From contig CAVSHT010000007.1 of NCBI GenBank assembly GCA_963727895.1, positions 32,001-96,000 on the forward strand: a stretch of DNA of 64,000 bases. Reading direction: 5' to 3'. Shown one piece after another: positions 33,207 through 60,739 of the stretch. A program made the position numbers and the translations under genes. Positions within the stretch are counted from its first letter, which is position 1. Each line of letters starts with the position of its first letter. Under the pieces are notes generated by a model. It ran no database searches and was not told the origin of the DNA. It worked only from the letters and a program-made list of their open reading frames with translations. Source of the DNA: an uncultured Methanosarcinaceae archaeon. Its GTDB lineage: Archaea > Halobacteriota > Methanosarcinia > Methanosarcinales > Methanosarcinaceae.

Positions 33207-33258
33207 TAAAAACATTATCTGATGATTGATAGTCAAATTGGAAAAAAGAAAAATAAAT

Positions 33259-33997
33259 GGTATTGATACTTAAATATAGTTATATACTATTAGAAAGTAT
33301 ATTTCTGCATGAACTGCCCCAGATGCAATAGTTCCAGTCACAAAAAGAATGGTATAGTTGGCGGGCGTCAACGGTACAAATGCTCTGATTGTGGCTATAA
33401 CTATACGGTAGAGCTAAAATCAACTGCTTTTTCCGCTTCTGTAAAAAGACAGGCTTTACAACTTTACCTTGAAGGATTGGGCTTTCGCTCAATAGGGCGG
33501 TTTCAGGGGTAAGTCACGTTTCTGTCCAAAAATGGATCAAGAAATTTGGTCAAGAGTTAGAGGCTCTAAAAAGCGAAAATGAGATATCTATTGTTGAAAT
33601 GGATGAGATGCACACTTACATCGGTAACAAAAAAAATATTGCTGGATCTGGATTGCTGTTGATAGAGTTGGAAAAAAGTTCATCAACTGCTCTTTTGGCA
33701 TCAGAGGAACGGAAACTGGAAAACTACTCTGGGAAAAATTGAAGAAAAAAGAGATTGGAGAAGTGATGACAGACCACTGGAGAGCATATGCAGAGTTTCT
33801 TCCAGAAAAGATCCATACTCAATCCAAAGCAAAAACGTATACTGTTAAGGGATATAACAGCATATTGAGGCACTTTTTAGCAAGATTGAGAAGAAAGACA
33901 AAGTGTTATACGAAGAGTCTTGAAATGCTAAAGTACTCGGTTATTCTATTGATGAAATACAGAAATAAAGAGTTAATTATGTTTAGTTAACAATACC
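33259..33997 (+). mobile_element. IS1-family element copy 1 (defective, no target duplication)
   Basis: Ends GGTATTG...CAATACC; InsA Zn finger 'CPRC..KNG..GRQRYKC', A8 slippery site, InsB' 'TDHWRAY..HFLARLRRKTKC'; extra frameshift near 33503. Confidence 0.92.
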
Positions 33998-35710: not shown

Positions 35711-35846
35711 TCCTTACTTGTAATTTTTGGTTCCAGTTTTATTAAGAATCTATAACTCTATAGCATTTATCGTTGTTCAGTTAAAATTAAACTTTACTGC
35801 AATAAAAGACCTTGACAATAAGTATCTATTTCATTGTAATAAAAAG

Positions 35847-36592
35847 GGCATTGTTACTTAACTAGATCTAGTTCTTTATTTCTGTATTTCATCAATAGAA
35901 TAACGAGTACTTTAGCATTTCAAGACTCTTCGTATAACACTTTGTCTTTCTTCTCAATCTTGCTAAAAAGTGCCTCAATATGCTGTTATATCCCTTAACA
36001 GTATACGTTTTTGCTTTGGATTGAGTATGGATCTTTTCTGGAAGAAACTCTGCATATGCTCTCCAGTGGTCTGTCATCACTTCTCCAATCTCTTTTTTCT
36101 TCAATTTTTCCCAGAGTAGTTTTCCAGTTTCCGTTCCTCTGATGCCAAAAGAGCAGTTGATGAACTTTTTTCCAACTCTATCAACAGCAATCCAGATCCA
36201 GCAATATTTTTTTTGTTACCGATGTAAGTGTGCATCTCATCCATTTCAACAATAGATATCTCATTTTCGCTTTTTAGAGCCTCTAACTCTTGACCAAATT
36301 TCTTTATCCATTTTTGGACAGAAACGTGACTTACCCCTAAAAACCGCCCTATTGAGCGAAAGCCCAATCCTTCAAGATAGAGTTGTAAAGCCTGTCTTTT
36401 AACAGAAGCGGAAAAAGCAGTTGATTTTAGCTCTACTGTATAGTTATAGCCACAATCATGGATCATGGCATTTGTAGCGTTGACGCCCACCAACTATACC
36501 GTTCTTTTTGTGACTGGAACTATTGCATCTGGGGCGGTTCATGAAGAAATATACTTTCTAATAGTATATAACTATGTTTAAGTATCAATGTC
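35847..36592 (-). mobile_element. IS1-family element copy 2 with 8-bp target duplication ATAAAAAG
   Basis: Ends GGCATTG / CAATGTC; ATAAAAAG at 35839-35846 and 36593-36600; insA disrupted by a 7-bp duplication (ATCATGG x2). Confidence 0.93.
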
Positions 36593-43396: not shown

Positions 43397-44135
43397 GGCA
43401 TTGTTACTTAACTATATCTAGTTCTTTATTTCTGTATTTCATCAATAGAATAACCGAGTACTTTAGCATTTCAAGACTCTTCGTATAACACTTTGTCTTT
43501 CTTCTCAACCTTGCCAAAAAGTGCCTCAATATGCTGTTATATCCTTCAACAGTATACGTTTCTGCTTTTGATTGAGTATGGATCTTTTCTGGAAGAAACT
43601 CTGCATATGCTCTCCAGTGATCTGTCATCACTTCTCCAATCTCTTTTTTCTTCAATTTTTCCCAGAGTAATTTTCCAGTTTCCGTTCCTCTGATGCCAAA
43701 AGAGCAGTTGATGAACTTTTTCCCAACTCTATCAACAGCAATCCAGATCCAGCAATACTTTTTTTGTTACCGATGTACGTGTGCATTTCATCCATTTCAA
43801 CAATAGATATCTCATTTTCACTTTTTAGGTCCTCTAACTCCTGACCAAATTTCTTTATCCATCTTTGGACAGAAACATGACTTACCCCTAAAAATCGTCC
43901 TATTAAGCGAAAGCCCAATCCTTCAAGATAGAGTTGTAAAGCCTGTTTTTAACAGAGGTGGAAAAAGCAGTTGATTTTAGCTCTACTGTATAGTTATATC
44001 CACAATCATGGCATTTGTAGCGTTGACGACCACCAACTATACCATTCTTTTTGTGACTGGAACTATTGCATCTGGGGCAGTTAATGAAGAAATATATGTT
44101 ATAAGCATATATATCTATTTTTTATTACCAATGCC
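43397..44135 (-). mobile_element. IS1-family element copy 3 (defective)
   Basis: Ends GGCATTG / CAATGCC; insA start reads ATT and insA is frameshifted; no matching target duplication. Confidence 0.9.
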
Positions 44136-49216: not shown

Positions 49217-49956
49217 GGTATTGTTATCTAAACATAGTTAACTCTTTATTTCTTTATTTCATCAATAGAATAACCGAGTACTTTAGCATTTCAATACTCT
49301 TCGTATAACACTTTGTCTTTCTTCTCAATCTTGCTAGAAAATGCCTCAATATGCTGTTATATCCCTCAACTGTAAATGTTTCTGCTTTTGATTGAGTATG
49401 ACTCTTTTCTGGAATAAACTCTGCATATGCCCTCCAGTGATCTGTCATCACTTCTCCAATCTCTTTTTTCTTCAATTTTTCCCAGAGTAGTTTTCCAGTT
49501 TCCGTTCCTCTACTACCAAAAGAGCAGTTGATGAACTTTTTCCCAACTCTATCAACAGCAATCCAGATCCAGCAATATTTTTTTTGTTACCGATGTAAGT
49601 GTGCATTTTATCCATTTCAACAATAGATATCTCATTTTCACTTTTTAGGTCTTCTAACTCCTGACCAAATTTCTTGATCCATCTTTGGGCAGAAACATGA
49701 CTCACCCCTAAAAATCTTCCTATTGAACGAAAGCCCAATCCTTCAAGGTAAAGTTGTAAAGCCTGTTTTTTAACAGAGGCGGAAAAATCAGTTGATTTTA
49801 GCTCTACTGTATAGTTATAGCCACAATCATGGCATTTGTAGCGTTGACGCCCACCAACTATACCGTTCTTTTTGTGACTGGAACTATTGCATTTGGGGCA
49901 GTTCATGAAGAAATATATGTTATAAGCATATATATCTATTTTTGATTACCGATACC
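49217..49956 (-). mobile_element. IS1-family element copy 4 (most intact)
   Basis: Ends GGTATTG / CGATACC; open insA 49472..49906; A8 frameshift site; insB' ends early (TAC>TAA); DEMH reads DKMH. Confidence 0.92.
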
Positions 49957-50130
49957 ATCATTTTTTATAGGGCTATTATTCCCTTTAACGGAATTTAGCG
50001 AAGAATAGACACAAGCTTTATTGAATTACGTAAAAAATATTTTCAGGATATAAGATCAAAAAATGATTATACCCTGAAGTTGTAATGTTAGAAGCAATAA
50101 TGAGGTTAGATGAAGTTTTTGGATAAACTC

Positions 50131-52448
50131 CTACAATACATCATCTAACGACTCAACAAATTTATAATGTGACAATGATATTTTTGTCTCATTTATATGT
50201 TTGTCACCTGAATTTTCAAAAAAATTCTTCATCAAATATGTCATCAAAGCAACAAGTAACCCAAAAGAACCTGATACTATAAAGACTGTGTTAAGATCAA
50301 AATGTAATAGGACTATACCAAGTACTATGGGTGCAAGACTCTGACCTACATTTCTCATAGCATTGTGAATAGATAGACACACCCCCTGTAGATTCTGCAG
50401 GAGCTACATGAATTATTTGTGTGTCTATTAATGGTTGAGCAAGCCCATAACCAGCTCCGAACAGTAATATTAAGAGGATAATCATGTAAATTGAATACGC
50501 AAATGAGATAGCTATTATTGCCAGTCCGACAATTGCAAAACCAATAGCAATAATTAACATGCTTGAATGCTTACTAACCAGATTCTTCACGCAGGATATA
50601 GTAACGATGACAGCTATTCCCTCCAAAGCCAATATAAGTCCTGCTTCCCTTGCAGTATAACCAAATACACCTTCAAGCATAAAGGGCAAGTAAACAACTA
50701 CTGAAAATAATAAAAAGTAGATAGTAAAACTCAGGAATACAGTGTACATTACTCGCAAATCCTTGAGTGCTTTAAAAGCATTAAGTATTCCGTCGTGTTC
50801 ATCGTTTTCGTTCTTAACAACCCTTGTCTCTGGAAAGAAAAAGATCACAACAAAAGCAAATGGTAGAGATAATACATAGAAAAGGAATGGACAGTTCCAT
50901 TTAAAACTTGCCAGTCCCCCACCTATAGTCACCACTTTAAATAATGCGACATTTTATGTTTAAATGTATGTTTCTCCCAAAATTCATTCATTTCTTCCTT
51001 TAATGCTTCAATATTTTTAAATGATTTTATTGACGTTAAGTTTTCTCTTGTCACTTTCCAACAGTATTCTGTTGGGTTCCTATCTGGAGTAGCTGGAGGG
51101 AAAAATATTATTTTCAACCAATGCTTATTATTTTGATAAAATTCCTTTGCCTTTGCTGATCTATGCCATGTAGCTCTGTCCAGTAAAAGAAATATCCTTG
51201 CCCCTATATCTCTTTGAAACTTGATTAATGATTTTAAGTAAGAGTCTGTATTCTGTGTAATTCCTAAATCATACCAATAAAACTCTCCATTTTCAGTGTA
51301 GAATCCTCCAATATTGATTTTTGCTTTTGAACCACTTGTAAATTTAATAGGTTTTGAGCCCTTTATTGCCCAACATCTTGATCTATTTGAATCCACACAA
51401 AAATTACTTTCATCATGGGTAACGAATAAATGATTAGGGTTTAGTAATCTGTTTTTTGGACTTCTCTTATGAATTATTTTTTAAGCACCTCATTTCTTCT
51501 TTTAGATTGAGGTCGACATGTGATTTTTCTCAACCCTAAATTTTTTAAAATTTGTCTCATTCTTGATTTGGAATAAGATACTCCAAATTTTTCCTTGACA
51601 AATTGAACTGCATCTTTTGTTTGCCAACCACGAGAATAAACATCATCTGTTGGTATAGGTTCTAAAAATGTCTCTCTTAACTCAGATAATTGTTCTGCAG
51701 TTAAAAAAGACTTGATTCCTCGACCAGGTTTACATTTAAGGCTAAACAAACCGTCGGTTTCAGCTCGTTTTATCCAGCGATGAACAGTTGAACGGTGAAC
51801 TGAAAAATCGTCGGCAACTTTAGCGGGACTCAAACCATTTTTGACCAATAATAAGGCTTGAAGTTTAATCTGCTCGTTTTTGTTACAGGAATTTATGATA
51901 GCTGTAGAAATATCAAAAGTTGTAAACATTTCCAAACTCATATATAAAATTATATACTAATTTCAGGTATAAGAATGTTGCAGTAAATACAGAGGTAACT
52001 ATATAAGAGGACCAAATATTGAGCCAATAGCAAGAGCCGTACTAATCTTGCTTGTGGCACTTAATCTTTCATGATCATTGTATACATCCCTTATGACCAG
52101 CATAGTCAAAGACAGCATTCCTGCTGCTCCAATACCCTGTATTAACCTCAAGATAATAAGTAACTTCAGACTAGAAGTGAAATAACTTACAAGTCCCATT
52201 AGACCGTAAATCACAAGGCAGGGAACAAGTAGCTTCTTACGGTTCATACGGTCTATGAAATTTCCAATCATCAGAGTAAAAATAGCCGTTGAGATAGTGT
52301 ACCCCGATATCAACAATGCTACTTCCTGGAATGTTGTCTGAAGGGGTTTCACCATATCTGGTAATGCTGGTGCTAAAATAGCACCTCCAGCCATTGCAAA
52401 AAATGCAGTAATACAAAGCATTAGAAGGTGAATGTTTTTGAATTTCAT
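50131..52448 (-). pseudogene. MFS transporter interrupted by IS630, with a further frameshift near 50378
   Basis: N-part '...IGSIFGPLI' joins C-part 'GGGLASFKWNCPF...' once the insertion is removed; motif A-like 'GNFIDRMNRK'. Confidence 0.88.
50926..52001 (-). mobile_element. IS630-family element with TA target duplication (transposase has a nonsense codon)
   Basis: TIRs TAGTCACCACTTTAAATAATGCGACATT / TAGTTACCTCTGTATTTACTGCAACATT; TA on both flanks; HTH orfA and DDE orfB ('HDES', 'LLDRATWH', 'NPTEYCW'); TAA before the C-A6 slippery site. Confidence 0.92.
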
Positions 52449-54166: not shown

Positions 54167-54673
54167 ACGACCGAACGACAGGTTGAAAGTGTATTTATCG
54201 AAATTCCGAAAGGAAGCCGTAACAAATATGAATACGACAAAGAAAAAAAAGTGCTTAAATACGACAGAATGCTTTCTTCTTCAATGGTATATCCCTCAGA
54301 TTATGGCTTTTTCCCCGAGACCTTAGCCCTTGACGGCGATCCTTTAGATGCCATGGTATTAACATGGGAACCTACCTTTCCAGGTTGTATGATAGATGTA
54401 CATCTTGTAGCATTGTTTGACATGGAAGATGATAAAGGCAGAGATGAAAAAATACTCTGTGTTCCAAAGAGTGACCCTATGTGGAATTATATTGAAACAG
54501 TTGACCAAGTTCCACCTCATCTATTTAAGGAAATTACTCATTTCTTCCAAACTTACAAGAATTTAGAGGAAAAACGCGTGAGGGTTCTCGGTTGGAGAGA
54601 CCTTGAAACAGCAGTCAACATACTTCAGGAAGCTAAAGATCGATATCATGAAAAACAGAACGGAAAAAAATAA
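54167..54673 (+). CDS. ppa: Family I inorganic pyrophosphatase; expected start codon reads ACG
   Basis: 'IEIPKGSRNKYEYD', 'YPSDYGF', 'DGDPLDA', 'DEKIL', 'HFFQTYK'. The conserved N-terminus lies upstream of the first canonical in-frame start (GTG 54251). Confidence 0.85.
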   Translation, partial: TTERQVESVFIEIPKGSRNKYEYDKEKKVLKYDRMLSSSMVYPSDYGFFPETLALDGDPLDAMVLTWEPTFPGCMIDVHLVALFDMEDDKGRDEKILCVPKSDPMWNYIETVDQVPPHLFKEITHFFQTYKNLEEKRVRVLGWRDLETAVNILQEAKDRYHEKQNGKK

Positions 54674-54863: not shown

Positions 54864-55073
54864 TCATAATAAACTTGAAGACATCCAGAAGATAGATCGT
54901 TCTTGTGCAGAGTAGTATGATCATCCTCAATGATTAAATTCTTCATATTCACTTTCTTTTTGACCACTTTATCCGTTGATCTTTACACAGCTTTTTTAGG
55001 AATAATTCATGGACAGATATATTTTATAAGATATTTGCACTTAAAACCTGCAAAATAAAAAAATAATTTGTTT

Positions 55074-55863
55074 GGCATTGGTATTTAAAAATAGATATAT
55101 ATGCTTATAACATATATTTCTTCATGAACTGCCCAGATGCAATAGTTCTAATTACAAAAAGAACGGTATAGTTGGTGGTCGTCAACGCTACAAATGCTCT
55201 GATTGTGGCTATAACTATACAGTAGAGCTAAAATCAACTGCTTTTTCCGCCTCTGTTAAAAACAGGCTTTACAACTTTACCTTGAAGGATTGGGCTTTCG
55301 CTCAATAGGAAGAGTTTTAGGGGTGAGTCATGTTTCCGTCCAAAAATGGATAAAGAAATTTGGTCAGGAGTTAGAGGCCCTAAAAAGTGAAAATGAGATA
55401 TCTATTGTTGAAATGGATGAAATGCACACTTACATCGGTAACAAAAAAAATATTGCTGGATCTGGATTGCTGTTGATAGAGTTGGGAAAAAGTTTATCAA
55501 CTGCTCTTTTGGTAGCAGAGGAACAGAAACTGGAAAACTACTCTGGGAAAAAGTGAAGAAAAAAGAGATTGGAGAAGTGATGACAGATCACTGGAGAGCA
55601 TATGCAGAGTTAATTCCAGAAAAGAGTCATACTCAATCAAAAGCAGAAACATTTACAGTTGAGGGATATAACAGCATATTGAGGCATTTCCTGGCAAGAT
55701 TGAGAAGAAAGACAAAGTGTTATAAAAAAAGTCTTGAAATGCTAAAGTACTCGGTTATTCTATTGATGAAATAAAAAAATAAAGAGTTAACTATGTTTAG
55801 ATAACAATGCCCTATTGATGAAATACAGAAATAAAGAGTTAACCATGTTTAGTTAACAATACC
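55074..55863 (+). mobile_element. IS1-family element copy 5 (defective) with a doubled right end
   Basis: GGCATTG...CAATGCC (55811) followed directly by a second 52-bp right end ending CAATACC (55863); frameshifts in insA. Confidence 0.9.
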
Positions 55864-55980: not shown

Positions 55981-57141
55981 TTATTTGTAATACCTTTTAT
56001 TATATATGTGAGACTTTTTTAACATCAAGTTTAATAATATAGTATGAAACTTCAAAAACATTTGGTCAAATGTGTGTCCTAGGGATGCAGATTCATACAT
56101 TATATTTGCAAAATAAGACATCCCGAGAGTAAATGAGCGGGGAAGATGTCCATAAAAGAATTTTCCTGTATGATATGCAAACCTCAAGCCTCTAATAATT
56201 TCTCTTTGATATCTTTTTTGTAGTGACTGAGAATCAAAAACTCCTGATTTTATGCTTGAATAAATCACATCTGCAGCAATGGTCCCACTTTTTACTGCAT
56301 AATAGATGCCTTCTCCAGTCCAATACTCTCCAAAGCCTGCAGCATCTCCAACAAGGATACATGGAAAATCTGGTTGCTTGTAGTAAATTCCATAATAAGG
56401 AATAATGTGTCCTTTAAATTCTTTAGACTCAGGTACAAGCCCAAGCTGTTCAATGTAATCAGAAAGATATTTTTGGATATTCTTCATTTTTTTATTTGTT
56501 GTATAAGCCCCAACGCAAACGTATTTATCTTTTGGAAAAATCCACAGATAACCATTTGGAACTGTCCCAAAATCAAAAGTCATATTAAATTTTCCAATAT
56601 TTTCCTTACTTAGGGGACAGTTAATTTCTATTGCAAAACCGTAAATACTTCTTTTAATAATATTAAATTTCCTATTGACAATGCTGTTAGTACCATCAGC
56701 CCCGATTAAGTAATTACAACGGAACGACTGCTCCTCTGTTTTGACACTAAATTCTCCATTTTCCCAACTGACTTCAGTCACCTTTATTCCATCAAGAAAG
56801 GTTGCTCCTGACTCAACAGCTTTTTTAACCATAAAGTTATCGAACTCTGTTCTTTCGACCATTTTAGTAAGTGTTTTGTCACCTGAGATCTTATGAAATA
56901 TCTTATTTTTGTATGAGGCTACAACAGAATTTGCACTATATTTTACTTCTTTAGAAATAGGAAAATCAAAAGACTTGAAAGTTTTTACTGTTAACCCTCC
57001 AGCACAGGGTTTGTAACGTGGAAAAACATGTTTATCAATAACAAGCACATTAACTTTTGATCTGGCTAATGTATACGCTGCAGATGAGCCCGCAGGTCCT
57101 GCTCCAATAATAACAACATCATATTTTTTCATATAGATCAT
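55981..57141 (-). CDS. Geranylgeranyl reductase family FAD oxidoreductase
   Basis: 'DVVIIGAGPAGS', 'PRYKPCAGGL', 'IGADGTNS', 'GYLWIFPK', 'LVGDAAG....TGEGI'. Confidence 0.88.
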   Translation of the reverse strand: MIYMKKYDVVIIGAGPAGSSAAYTLARSKVNVLVIDKHVFPRYKPCAGGLTVKTFKSFDFPISKEVKYSANSVVASYKNKIFHKISGDKTLTKMVERTEFDNFMVKKAVESGATFLDGIKVTEVSWENGEFSVKTEEQSFRCNYLIGADGTNSIVNRKFNIIKRSIYGFAIEINCPLSKENIGKFNMTFDFGTVPNGYLWIFPKDKYVCVGAYTTNKKMKNIQKYLSDYIEQLGLVPESKEFKGHIIPYYGIYYKQPDFPCILVGDAAGFGEYWTGEGIYYAVKSGTIAADVIYSSIKSGVFDSQSLQKRYQREIIRGLRFAYHTGKFFYGHLPRSFTLGMSYFANIMYESASLGHTFDQMFLKFHTILLNLMLKKSHIYNKRYYK

Positions 57142-57371
57142 TATAAAAATGGAAATTTGAATATAATGGTTATTAATCTTACAAAAATTTTACTAAAAAT
57201 TCAGATAGAAATCAATATTGCGATTAGTCTTAATACTGATTGATACTATAAAGAATAAGTTATTTAGAACAACTGGAAAGTAAAGAAGAGGAAGACGAAG
57301 AGAGGGGTATAGAGCAAATTTTACCAAAATTAAACACATTATTTTTACAGAGCTGAATAATCAGAGGAAAT

Positions 57372-57995
57372 CTAATTTTTATCAAAATGTTCTATTGTTT
57401 CAATTACTTTCTTATAATCCACTTTCGTGTTATAACAACCATCGTTCAACAGAGGAACACCATACGTCACAACTTTTTTTCCATTTAAAGCGCACATTCC
57501 TTTGTTTATTTCGTAATCACATGCTATTCCAAGTAGCCCGTCTGCAGGTTTATATTTAAGGATATTGACGAGGGCCGAGGAACCGGTGAATATATATAAA
57601 TCGTATCCATACTTTTTGGCATCTTTTCTTAATTGAGTTACAATGCACTTCCCGCAGTCTCGACATTGAATCCCTAAAATTGTTGACAAAGCAGGGCAAT
57701 CGAGTGAACGCACACAATGCGGAACAACAATTATGCGATTTTTGGTTTTTGAAAAATCTGATGCATGAGCTATGTTTTTCAAAGACACTATCCATTTATC
57801 CAAAATTCGTGGATCTGAAAATTTACAGAAGAAATATTTTATAGGTAAATAAAAAAAGTCAAGTATATTTGAAAAGAAACCTGCAAGCCATACGTTTCTT
57901 TTCAGGCTTATTCGACTCACTAAGAGAGCAGATATCGATATCAAAACCGAAAAAATGATGGTAAAAAACAGAGCTTTTCCTATAAAACTATACAT
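57372..57995 (-). CDS. DUF116 domain protein (membrane-anchored, Cys-rich)
   Basis: N-terminal TM segment; 'PHCVR..DC......G..C..CGKC', 'GSS', 'GIACDYE', 'PLLNDGCYNT'. Confidence 0.82.
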   Translation of the reverse strand: MYSFIGKALFFTIIFSVLISISALLVSRISLKRNVWLAGFFSNILDFFYLPIKYFFCKFSDPRILDKWIVSLKNIAHASDFSKTKNRIIVVPHCVRSLDCPALSTILGIQCRDCGKCIVTQLRKDAKKYGYDLYIFTGSSALVNILKYKPADGLLGIACDYEINKGMCALNGKKVVTYGVPLLNDGCYNTKVDYKKVIETIEHFDKN

Positions 57996-58623
57996 CGCAT
58001 ATCTCCATTTTTCGGATAATTTCTTCCACATCAGCTTTGGTATTGAAACAACCATCTCGAAGAAGAAGAACTCCTTGCACAGGGATAAAAGATACTTCCT
58101 GCATATCTTCTGCAAGCTCATTGTAACAAGCTACACCCACGCAAGATTGAGGACTGTACTCCTTGAAGATCTTTTTGACAAAGCTGCTTCCAGGAATTAT
58201 AAAAACCTTAAAATTGTACTTATCTGCAGCTTCATATATTTTTGAAATGTCACATTTCCCACAGCGTTTGCATTCGTAGCCATGAATAGGGTCACATCTA
58301 GCCCTGCATTCCGGGTGCCTCATACACTGAGGTAGGAATACAACCCTATTCTCTTTTGTGTGAACAAAGCGATCCAACATTAAGGCGTTTCGGATATCAA
58401 TAAGGATATCGTCAACAAGTGTTTCTCTTATCCTGAAAACCTTGCAGATCCATTTTGCAGGAGAATAAAATAGATAAAGTGTAAACAGTACAAATCCCGG
58501 AAAAACAATTCTGTGATTTTTAAAGGAATATGCCCCTATGAGCAGGGCGATAACGGTTCCTGCGATAACAAAAATTACTAAGTATATAAATATTTCACCT
58601 AGAAATTCATAAGGGATATTCAT
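57988..58623 (-). CDS. DUF116 domain protein (membrane-anchored, Cys-rich)
   Basis: TM segments; 'LPQCMR..EC......G.ECKRCGKC', 'IPGSSF', 'GVACYNE', 'LLRDGCFNT'; overlaps the next gene. Confidence 0.82.
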   Translation of the reverse strand: MNIPYEFLGEIFIYLVIFVIAGTVIALLIGAYSFKNHRIVFPGFVLFTLYLFYSPAKWICKVFRIRETLVDDILIDIRNALMLDRFVHTKENRVVFLPQCMRHPECRARCDPIHGYECKRCGKCDISKIYEAADKYNFKVFIIPGSSFVKKIFKEYSPQSCVGVACYNELAEDMQEVSFIPVQGVLLLRDGCFNTKADVEEIIRKMEICDV

Positions 58624-58728
58624 GTTCAAGGGGAGGTGTATATCGGTATTTAAGTTTTACTCTAAAACAAAAAGAATCAAGAAAATAGAACAAAGAAAGC
58701 TGGAGGAAACCAGCCTTCATCTTCACGC

Positions 58729-59958
58729 TTACGTAGTGCTCAGGCCCAGTGCCTCTGCAACCAGCTCGATGACGTCTTCTACATCTATGTGAGCTTTGAG
58801 GGAATCACGGCCGTCCGAGAGGTTCCTCTTACAGAAGGGGCACGCACTGGAAAGAATGTCTGCATTGGTTTCAAGAGCGTCCTTAACTCTGGCTTCTCCA
58901 ATTGCCACAGCAAGATCACCCATTCCTGCTTTTACACCACCGCCAGCTCCACAGCAGCGCTGGAATTCTTTTGACCTTTCCATTTCGACGAACTTAACGC
59001 CTGGAATATGGGAAAGCACAAACCTGGGAGCATTAAAGACGCCGACGTGGCGGCCAAGGTGACAGGGATCGTGATAGGTAACCGTCTTGTTAATAGACTT
59101 CTCCCATTTGATTTTGTCCTCCTTTATAAGGTCTGCAAGGAACTGTGTGATATGAATAACCTCAAAAGGCAGTTCCTGCCCGAGAAGCCTGGGCCAGTCG
59201 ATCTTTGCAGCACGGAAACAGCCTGCACATGCAAAGAGAACTTTTTTGGCACCTTTCTTCTTAAGGGCTTCGACATTGTGTCTTGCAGCTTCATGGGCTA
59301 CCTGCTCGTAACCTATCTGACCTGTTCTGATAGGATTTGAACCACAACACCACTCATCTTCTCCAAGCATGGCAAATTTAACGCCCAGCTTGTTAAGTAC
59401 ACGCGAGGTCGCAAAAGCCAGAGAAAGCTGCTTGTATCCTGCAGTACAGCCAGTGAAATAGACGATGTCTGCTTTGTCTGCGATTTTCACATCTGCAGGA
59501 ACCCATGCAAGTCTGTCTTTCTGGTCAAGCATGTAGGCGTTATGGTATTGCTTTATCATCTTAGGGATAGCGCCCAGCTTTCCATAAGGTCCGATTCCTT
59601 TCTTGACAAGGTTTGTCCTCAGGGCTTCCCAGAGTTCCACAGTGTTAATACCTGCTTCACAAACGGTTCCACAGACACCACATGTAGTACAACCATATAT
59701 ATCGTCTTTGAATTCTTCAAGCTCTGATTGAGGAATTTCCTGTGGACCAAAAATTTTTGCTTTAAACCCGTAGGACTTGTTCATGAACTGCTTCCAGCGC
59801 AAGATTTTATCCCTGGGGGCTAATCCTGGTTTCCCGCCGGAAGCGGCATAAGTCGGACACCATTTTACACACTCACCACAGCGAACGCAGGAATCAAGTT
59901 CCATGAGCTGGACTGCAGTAAGATTCTTCGTATCAATTGAAGGGGTACGTTTTGCCAT
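58729..59958 (-). CDS. hdrD: Methanophenazine-dependent heterodisulfide reductase, catalytic subunit D
   Basis: Two CxxCxxCxxxC motifs plus two CCG domains ('EWCCG', 'YHDPCHLGR', 'RCCGAGGG', 'ACPFC'). Confidence 0.95.
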
Positions 59959-59962
59959 CTTT

Positions 59963-60739
59963 TTATTCGCCTCCTTTATTTGCAAGAAGTGCAAGCGGTA
60001 TGGCGATTACATGTATATATTTGCTGTATGGAATAAATGCGATACAGAAGATCAGGGCAAATATGGAATGGAAGAGAGCTGCCGGTGGTGCTGCTGACGG
60101 GGCAAGCCCAAAGCTCCATATAAGTCCTGTTCGTATTCCATCGGCGAGGAAACCGGAAATAGTAACTATGAAAAGTATTCCAATTAAAATCCAATCATAC
60201 TTAATGGAAGCTTCCCTGACTTCAGAGACAAACAGTCTTCTTACTAATGCTATAAGAACTCCAATAAGCAGGATGTACCCGAAGATATAGTTCGGAATGG
60301 AGAGCCAATCTCTAAATACGTCAGGAGTAAACGGGAGTTCAATTCCGATCTTCTCTATCATTTCGACTGAAAACATCAACCCTGACAAGGCAAAGAGGGT
60401 CACCCAGCCTCCAAAAATACATAAGTGCATGATCCAGCGGAAAGGACTTCTCTGGAGAATTCTTCTCTGGAAGATAATATCAAGAATAAGAACTTCTAAG
60501 ATACCATGTCCATGATGAGATTTTGCTGTTACCTGTTTCCACCAGGTTTTCAAGAATGTTATTGCACTTCCTTTCTTTCCTGGCTGAGGTTCAAGGTTGT
60601 AACCCGTAACTCCTGTTCCCCATTTCTGTAGGTTAACTATTAGACCATATAAGAATATCACAACGGCTAGTATAGCCATTATCATTACCTGGACAAACGT
60701 CATTCGTAGTGTATCCGAGAGCCCAGAGAAATACAACAT
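59963..60739 (-). CDS. hdrE: Heterodisulfide reductase cytochrome b subunit E
   Basis: '[16 protein letters not shown]', 'RWIMH', 'ALFHS', 'PYSKYIH'; multiple TM helices; adjacent to hdrD. Confidence 0.95.

Follow-up and report, generated by a model that had tools for sequence, protein, structure and literature searches.

A tandem DUF116 gene pair associated with geranylgeranyl reductase-family genes beside hdrED in Methanosarcinaceae: a candidate membrane redox partner of prenyl reductases

What does a pair of membrane-anchored, cysteine-rich DUF116 proteins do in a methanogen, and does it serve the heterodisulfide reductase genes on one side of it or the prenyl reductase-like gene on the other? 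The question is raised by a 64,000-nucleotide stretch of DNA from an uncultured Methanosarcinaceae archaeon (contig CAVSHT010000007.1, positions 32,001 to 96,000; the window, below), whose genome groups with Methanosarcina, judging by its close relatives. The genes hdrE, hdrD, DUF116a, DUF116b and GGRw, the last of the geranylgeranyl reductase (GGR) family, lie on the minus strand throughout, with a copy of the insertion sequence IS1 beyond GGRw. A preliminary description of the locus had listed these five minus-strand genes, and their coordinates and Pfam and NCBIfam matches agree with it; it had further suggested that the DUF116 pair and the reductase build or modify methanophenazine, the carrier used by HdrED. 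The first isoprenoid unit of the methanophenazine tail is saturated. In the parts of two publications that we draw on, the C25 prenyl diphosphate synthase is the only component of the methanophenazine pathway to have been identified (PMC3017947, PMC6315138), and our literature search, which covered the main texts of freely accessible papers, found no newer report on the pathway.

Both central proteins belong to DUF116 (PF01976; 159.5 bits for DUF116a and 139.3 bits for DUF116b, cut-off 25), share 32% identity (BLASTP E 8e-33) and are the only two of their kind in the window genome. The longest open reading frame (ORF) of DUF116a spans 57988..58629 on the minus strand, with a conserved start at ATG 58623 (211 aa; M3 is invariant among 22 aligned orthologues). 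Its paralogue DUF116b (57372..57995, minus strand) begins at the conserved ATG 57995 (207 aa), with an MY.LIG start shared by its 22 aligned orthologues; the longest ORF runs on to 58121, an extension that is not conserved. Given the two conserved starts, the gene overlap claimed in the preliminary description therefore amounts to 8 nt. That description had also ascribed to both proteins a membrane anchor and a common cysteine pattern, and both features hold up. Each protein has one clear N-terminal hydrophobic helix (Kyte-Doolittle >1.6 over residues ~2-35), and seven cysteines (C102, C108, C120, C123, C126, C168 and C194 in DUF116a numbering) are invariant in 23 diverse DUF116 sequences, as are P100, R104, G193 and T197. 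The same seven cysteines are invariant in the DUF116b orthologues. As a residue pattern, this is compatible with, and suggests, a putative iron-sulfur (Fe-S) cluster together with a thiol pair.

In the AlphaFold2 model of DUF116a (predicted local distance difference test score, pLDDT, 94.2), a long N-terminal helix and two short helices, together with an amphipathic helix, accompany a Rossmann 2x2/flavodoxin-like domain that spans residues 90-213. Searches with this fold returned no Foldseek match at E <=0.001 and, with VIA-align, generic Rossmann/flavodoxin-like matches only, the best (Z 8.5) being to designed Rossmann-type folds. Likewise, a PDB sequence-profile search found no meaningful solved relative of DUF116, and a protein atlas search no usable match. 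These data agree with the published account of the family (arCOG02078/COG1852/DUF116), which describes two N-terminal hydrophobic segments, a flavodoxin-like fold and a CxxCxxC motif, and predicts metal binding and a role in electron transfer (Makarova et al, 2015; PMC5898192, section 3.6). The same authors count DUF116 among conserved archaeal membrane proteins to which no function has been assigned, link it to "sulfite or nitrite reductase components" and an ATPase, and report its fusion to a polyprenyl synthetase in Pirellula (PMC5898192). Our scans of long DUF116 proteins did not reproduce this fusion: in four such proteins (335-552 aa) no Pfam domain besides DUF116 reached E <=1e-5, and a search for fused, longer forms found none, which is weak evidence. 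The published account mentions neither the a/b duplication nor a link to a GGR clade. Our literature search, with the scope given above, found neither of these in print, nor any report that links DUF116 to GGR genes or assigns the present genes to methanophenazine synthesis; none of the locus tags searched for occurs in the main text of PMC11619418.

The second partner in question, GGRw (55981..57141, minus strand; likely start at ATG 57129, MKKYDVV), scores 225.8 bits against the geranylgeranyl reductase family model TIGR02032 (cut-off 158.8). Enzymes of this family are recognised by an N-terminal FAD fold with a GxGxxG motif, a cysteine near the flavin, a (Y/F)xWxFP motif and a GDAAG motif. 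GGRw carries GAGPAG at residue 13, KPCAGG at 44, YLWIFP at 198 and GDAAG at 265, and aligns over its full length to the Thermoplasma acidophilum digeranylgeranylglycerophospholipid (DGGGPL) reductase 3OZ2 (E 8.6e-15), with the four motifs aligned over residues 4-313. More specific assignments are not supported by score: GGRw falls well below the cut-offs of the lipid GGR equivalogs NF041080 (69.7 bits versus 580), NF041160 (68.9 versus 780) and NF041385 (56.5 versus 700) and of BchP/ChlP (TIGR02023; 163.1 versus 343.3). Some sources name its homologues "menaquinone-9 beta-reductase". The gap to DUF116b is 230 nt, in line with the roughly 230 bp given earlier, and the remark that the GGR gene looks AT-rich holds mildly, with a guanine-plus-cytosine (GC) content of 33.4% against 36.6% for the genome and 47.4% for hdrD, although DUF116b is similar at 34.0%. 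At only three points below the genome mean, the composition of GGRw led us to reject the idea of a foreign, misplaced gene.

To what extent, then, do such reductases accompany the DUF116 pair elsewhere? We collected 120 neighbourhoods and, after removing loci with identical DUF116a DNA, retained 100 distinct a/b pair loci. Downstream of DUF116b, most Methanosarcina loci carry a tandem run of one to three GGR-family genes (GGRx) and, beyond it, Dus-like, CitG-like, DUF447 and flavoprotein genes; the GGR arrays reach four genes. A tree of 59 of the 93 GGR sequences collected (a quick search with support only from the Shimodaira-Hasegawa-like approximate likelihood ratio test, SH-aLRT, and with several long-branched rows) places these reductases in a super-clade (SH-aLRT 100) distinct from the lipid-type GGR paralogues that the same genome encodes. 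Four subclades make up this super-clade, namely GGRx (families f1, f2, f4 and f6; f, g, G, L and C numbers are our handles for families, genera, genomes, loci and contigs), GGRw, which is nested among bacterial sequences, a Methanolobus/Methanomethylovorans group, and a group from genus g13 of f6. Representatives of the three subclades other than that of GGRw also exceed the TIGR02032 cut-off (234.5, 243.1, 193.0 and 201.0 bits), and all subclades keep the YxWxFP-type and GD(A/S)AG motifs, the GxGxxG and KxC(G/A)G patterns each being missed in one or two rows.

All four subclades include some genes that neighbour a DUF116 pair. Among the 61 Methanosarcinaceae loci with enough sequence, 40 have a super-clade gene no more than 3 kb downstream of the pair. 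The arrangement differs in genus g16, where in four genomes the reductase gene stands divergently upstream of the pair and hdrED is not nearby, and in genome G006 of family f6, where it follows co-directionally and directly after a second, older type of DUF116 pair. GGRx matches of at least 50% identity occur in 25 genomes of the order sample and are within 3 kb of DUF116 in 18 of the 23 that could be assessed. GGRw is rarer, with orthologues in 5 of 58 other Methanosarcina genomes; in all five its place is between DUF116b, 0.3-2.1 kb upstream of it, and the GGRx genes. With the window included, DUF116b is followed by GGRw in 6/6 carrier genomes, three of the others being two-contig assemblies of 4.6-4.9 Mb, and the same order is found in locus L033. 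Conserved linkage in other Methanosarcinales, on which the preliminary description had staked its proposal beforehand, was thus found. The super-clade is the pair's most portable partner, and hdrED its most constant neighbour within one family; we therefore favour a reading in which DUF116a and DUF116b form a membrane redox pair serving GGR-type prenyl reductases, to which we give slightly less than an even chance.

DUF116 is found in 116/121 genomes of the order, with two adjacent matches in 33/33 genomes of f1. The history of the pair itself can be read from a quick DUF116 tree of 66 rows. The a clade (support 97) and the b clade (SH-aLRT 100) are confined to families f1 (that of the window), f2 and f3; they are old, and their genes are always in tandem and overlapping. 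A single-copy clade covers f4, f5, f7 and many other methanogen families, and the second pair type occurs in genus g13 of f6, in f16 and in f23. An old tandem duplication with translational overlap fits the idea that the two proteins might act as a heterodimer. The MqnA/MqnD marker of futalosine-type menaquinone synthesis is present in 33/33 genomes of f4, 1/1 of f5 and 5/6 of f6, and in 0/20 of f2, 0/27 of f3 and 1/33 of f1, the last being borderline. The a/b pair is thus confined to menaquinone-negative families, which fits a link to methanophenazine-type electron transport.

On its other side, the pair adjoins hdrED in the window. HdrE (59963..60739, minus strand), the membrane cytochrome b subunit of the enzyme, matches the NarI-like family PF02665 (25.9 bits, cut-off 22.9), with weak QmoC/DsrM-type matches, and is 70-91% identical to the product of the gene upstream of hdrD in other Methanosarcina loci. 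The catalytic subunit HdrD (longest ORF 58729..59994, minus strand) combines an N-terminal 2x[4Fe-4S] ferredoxin domain (Fer4 dicluster, PF13183) with two CCG stretches (PF02754, 108.1 bits), has the cytochrome b gene directly upstream, and is 80-100% identical across Methanosarcina loci; three distant paralogues elsewhere in the genome share 29-35% identity. An NCBIfam scan yielded no equivalog model at its cut-off for HdrD. Its longest ORF begins with TTG 59994; translation more likely starts at ATG 59955 (M14, MAKRTP...), near which the alignment with relatives begins.

Directly 3' of the hdrD stop, at 58664..58716 on the minus strand, lies a terminator-like hairpin (GGCTGG-loop-CCAGC) with a T-rich run behind it, whose core, GCTG..CTTTCTT, is conserved to at least 80% in an alignment of the window with 13 Methanosarcina loci (one further locus was dropped, its start not having been found). 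It is followed at 58647..58658 by an archaeal box resembling a B recognition element (BRE) and TATA box, AAAACTTAAATA, which is conserved in the alignment and ends 24 nt before the DUF116a ATG. Across the 14 rows the consensus TATAG.AA..CTTAAATA..GA.A is kept and the rest of the spacer is variable. We read the hairpin and T-run as a putative terminator and the AAAACTTAAATA box as a putative archaeal promoter. Metatranscriptome contigs, which show no strand, transcript ends or single transcripts and may include DNA carry-over, bridge hdrD and DUF116a in two studies and DUF116a and DUF116b in three. Word depth, itself a poor measure, is lower in contigs over DUF116 than in those over hdrD when the same RNA runs are compared. 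No contig from four metatranscriptomes covers 56607-57611, the junction of DUF116b and GGRw, which says nothing on co-transcription. The AT-rich spacer at this junction (57142..57371, minus strand) likely holds a separate putative promoter for GGRw.

Taken as a model, the locus would consist of three neighbouring units: hdrED, encoding the methanophenazine-dependent heterodisulfide reductase and presumably ending at the hairpin with its T-run; DUF116a-DUF116b, which would be translationally coupled behind their own TATA-like box; and GGRw, as the first gene of what appears to be a former tandem GGR array. DUF116a and DUF116b, each with an N-terminal membrane helix and a predicted cytoplasmic Rossmann/flavodoxin-like domain bearing the seven invariant cysteines, would probably form a heterodimer that docks soluble GGR-like flavoenzymes at the membrane and supplies them with electrons. 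These enzymes would in turn saturate double bonds of a membrane polyprenyl compound. Gene content, neighbourhood conservation, motifs and fold class are demonstrated; for the metal centre, the dimer, the electron flow and the substrate, the model states what we infer.

Several observations weigh against a pair dedicated to prenyl reduction, or against its tie to methanophenazine. The GGR super-clade was not found in 22 of the 70 Methanosarcinaceae genomes that are at least 95% complete, and is present in only 1/12 genomes of genus g5 and 1/6 of g3. In these genera, which mostly lack it, the DUF116 pair keeps all its invariant residues, so it must have some role without these reductases. Conversely, GGRx lies apart from any a/b pair in five genomes (G000, G095, G011, G016 and G026), and the adjacency seen in Methanosarcinaceae may in part be inherited gene order. 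Members of the DUF116 family are found in 164 of the 251 genomes from the phylum (62 of 94 genera), many of them without methanophenazine. Other methanogens combine a single DUF116 with an HdrA-like FAD/Fe-S protein and an IF-2B-family gene rather than with isoprenoid genes. As for methanophenazine in particular, hdrED looks like a transcription unit separate from the DUF116 pair, hdrD is upstream of the pair in 0/7 loci of f2, f3 and Methanogasteraceae, and G006 is positive for the menaquinone marker, yet has both a DUF116 pair and a super-clade GGR. The contrast between menaquinone-negative and -positive families is moreover confounded by common descent. The phyletic profile is mixed with regard to the preliminary description, the restriction of the a/b pair supporting it and the wide spread of DUF116 and the patchy GGR clade speaking against it; its carrier-module proposal is partly supported, gaining from the conserved linkage and being weakened, together with these two points, by the apparent separateness of hdrED.

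The constancy of hdrED invites another explanation, namely that DUF116a/b serve HdrED itself, either in assembly or maturation (of heme b in HdrE or of the CCG-bound clusters in HdrD) or as an accessory electron or thiol-disulfide relay, with the GGR genes as secondary neighbours. The gene hdrD is directly upstream of the pair in 69 of the 70 Methanosarcinaceae loci that reach 1.5 kb upstream. Where at least 7.3 kb of upstream sequence is available (56 loci), 55 loci have hdrD and hdrE, as compared with 29 for rubrerythrin, 37 for SpoU and 36 for MCM, so the hdrED-DUF116 link is stronger than the background conservation of gene order. The other neighbours are lost in 6/6 loci of g4, g8 and Methanomethylovorans, all of which retain hdrED, and the pair stays beside it even in genera mostly without the GGR clade. 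The RNA contigs spanning hdrD and DUF116a would agree with such a service, and the seven conserved cysteines, together with a thioredoxin neighbour in f4, would fit thiol-disulfide chemistry. However, the adjacency disappears altogether in f2, f3 and Methanogasteraceae and is absent from L079, a locus of anaerobic methanotrophic archaea (ANME-3) and the one exception among the 70; the conserved hairpin, T-run and TATA-like box intervene between hdrED and the pair; and many methanogens have a single DUF116 (hdrED was not searched for in those genomes). In addition, purified HdrED is a two-subunit enzyme. On balance, we consider a role in the service of HdrED rather unlikely, though worth keeping in view.

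Alternatively, DUF116 proteins could be general membrane-anchored redox or thiol proteins unrelated to either neighbour, their surroundings reflecting inherited order and local growth of the GGR array. The breadth of the family just described, its 966 clusters (E <=0.001) in a representative library, the varied outgroup contexts and the synteny of the whole MCM-SpoU-rubrerythrin-hdrED-DUF116 region in many Methanosarcinaceae all point this way. Such an origin does not readily explain why the GGR association recurs in three arrangements and three families, since the chance that a gene with one to three copies in a 2-4 Mb genome lies no more than 3 kb from a particular locus is, by our own estimate, well under 1%, nor why GGRw, which is of different origin, occupies the same position in all six genomes that carry it. 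We therefore hold a purely general function to be unlikely. More narrowly, the adjacency of DUF116b and GGRw in the window might be an accident of IS1-mediated rearrangement: an IS1 copy abuts GGRw, the assembly holds 198 copies of at least 700 nt, and the genes that normally follow (GGRx, Dus-like, CitG-like, DUF447 and flavoprotein) sit on a different contig. The same order in 5/5 other carriers, three of them in two-contig assemblies, and in L033 contradicts an accidental origin, which we reject as highly improbable; the earlier caveat about a GGR gene beside IS1 is thereby resolved.

What IS1 did to the locus can be traced further. The element at 55071..55811 on the plus strand ends the conserved gene order, and its transposase is encoded in two frames, with pieces at 55290-55774 on the plus strand. 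PF03400 is matched at 40.2 bits (cut-off 24.1), and NF033558 matches both ORFs at ~58 bits each, under its whole-protein cut-off of 100 because the gene is split; the two-frame transposase and the many copies place the element in the IS1 family. In the 3.67-Mb assembly, the copies of at least 700 nt are joined by 71 partial ones, with 90-95% identity among copies, and five near-full copies lie in the window (55071-55811, 33258-33994, 35839-36590, 43397-44135 and 49217-49957). The remainder of the GGR array is found on another contig of the same genome, at C9:301974-308917, detached from the DUF116 pair. It comprises a GGRx frameshifted near residue 206 and a second GGRx that is intact, along with the Dus-like gene, itself in two pieces, and those for the CitG-like, DUF447 and flavoprotein products, with IS1 copies 4-6 kb upstream. 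Given the GGRw-first order elsewhere, this remainder and the abundance of IS1, the element therefore marks a break in a conserved array and no chance junction; IS1 cut a longer GGR array beyond GGRw in the window genome. Two further ORFs of the window look truncated, in keeping with its IS-rich surroundings: one for an inorganic pyrophosphatase (54251-54673), whose match begins at profile position 22 of 153, and one of 149 aa (51999-52448) that by eye resembles the N-terminal part of a multi-helix membrane transporter.

Some additional features of the GGR arrays and of DUF116 loci outside the family were noted. Several GGRx genes contain one or two in-frame TAG codons (G067:C45:11916-13022 and the matches in G026:C95, G016:C56, G031:C72 and G095:C54), and two from genus g7 carry TGA or TAA in frame; these could reflect pyrrolysine read-through, pseudogenes or start/stop offsets. 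The cluster of Dus-like, CitG-like, DUF447 and PF02441-flavoprotein genes follows the GGR genes in L003-L005, L007, L011, L022 and most of the Methanosarcina loci L023-L064, and its families are presumably linked to tetrahydromethanopterin synthesis. Of 20 outgroup loci fetched, four had no ORFs scanned; both the HdrA-like and the IF-2B-family neighbours were found in 8/17 loci scanned. In L125, L126, L130, L133, L134, L135, L137 and L141 the order is HdrA-like (Pyr_redox_2 plus 2x4Fe-4S, 423-477 aa), IF-2B-family and, third, DUF116. L141 also has a UbiA prenyltransferase gene beside DUF116 (L141:8921-9904), and in L142 the genes for the large and small subunits of aconitase-X (AcnX) come directly after it (L142:6446-7995), which encode a dehydratase of the mevalonate pathway. 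A published figure legend gives an IspH/hopene-cyclase cluster as isoprenoid neighbour of DUF116 in a Bipolaricaulota isolate. These isoprenoid neighbours, like the electron transfer and the polyprenyl-synthetase fusion described by Makarova et al, speak for the reading with prenyl reductases. In f4, a thioredoxin gene and a 326-aa ORF with no Pfam match precede the single DUF116 (L015:10459-11722 and L016:8439-9702).

If the pair is indeed the redox partner of GGR-type enzymes, it would explain how electrons reach such reductases at the membrane. The leading single candidate for the substrate would be the methanophenazine tail, although as a specific assignment this is doubtful; dolichyl or polyprenyl phosphates and archaeol-type lipids, taken together, are about as likely. 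A bolder proposal, which we regard as speculative and improbable as a whole, is that DUF116a/b and the GGRx/GGRw array constitute the missing tailoring system for the methanophenazine polyprenyl tail, and that DUF116 proteins in general are the membrane modules through which electrons enter archaeal prenyl reductases of the GGR type, with respiratory lipid carriers as substrates (methanophenazine in Methanosarcinaceae and ANME-2, menaquinone in f6). Were it true, electrons would be drawn at the membrane beside HdrED, and Methanococcoides- and Methanohalophilus-like genera without the GGR clade would have a carrier that differs in saturation. With the comparative data, what began as a hunch from one genome has become a defined and genetically tractable target, namely a gene pair that every sampled member of the Methanosarcinaceae has, together with a dedicated prenyl-reductase clade. 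These data also yield a chemical prediction, in that isoprenoid saturation should be altered in mutants and differ between genera with and without the reductases, and thereby provide a lead, open to test, on the tailoring of membrane isoprenoids such as methanophenazine in these methanogens.

Three known systems help to place the locus. Compared with HdrED and DsrMK-type membrane-bound disulfide reductases, hdrE and hdrD have the expected domains, and to our knowledge DUF116a/b are not among the known subunits of such complexes. MenJ, the mycobacterial menaquinone side-chain reductase, belongs to the GGR family and saturates a single isoprene unit in a respiratory lipid carrier, which is the chemistry that the preliminary description had proposed for methanophenazine; GGRw, however, is not a member of this group (NF045655, 104.9 bits versus 700), and Methanosarcina lacks the menaquinone marker. 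The third is the lipid GGR of Methanosarcina acetivorans, which, according to a later article, depends on a ferredoxin whose gene lies next to its own (Isobe et al, 2014; Ogawa et al, 2014, as cited in PMC10821996). By analogy, the DUF116-GGR pattern resembles this system: in both, a GGR-family flavoenzyme with FAD and catalytic motifs kept is encoded next to a small, cysteine-rich, presumed electron donor. They differ in that the partner is a soluble ferredoxin there and two membrane-anchored DUF116 proteins here, and in that the present reductases form a separate super-clade, arranged in arrays.

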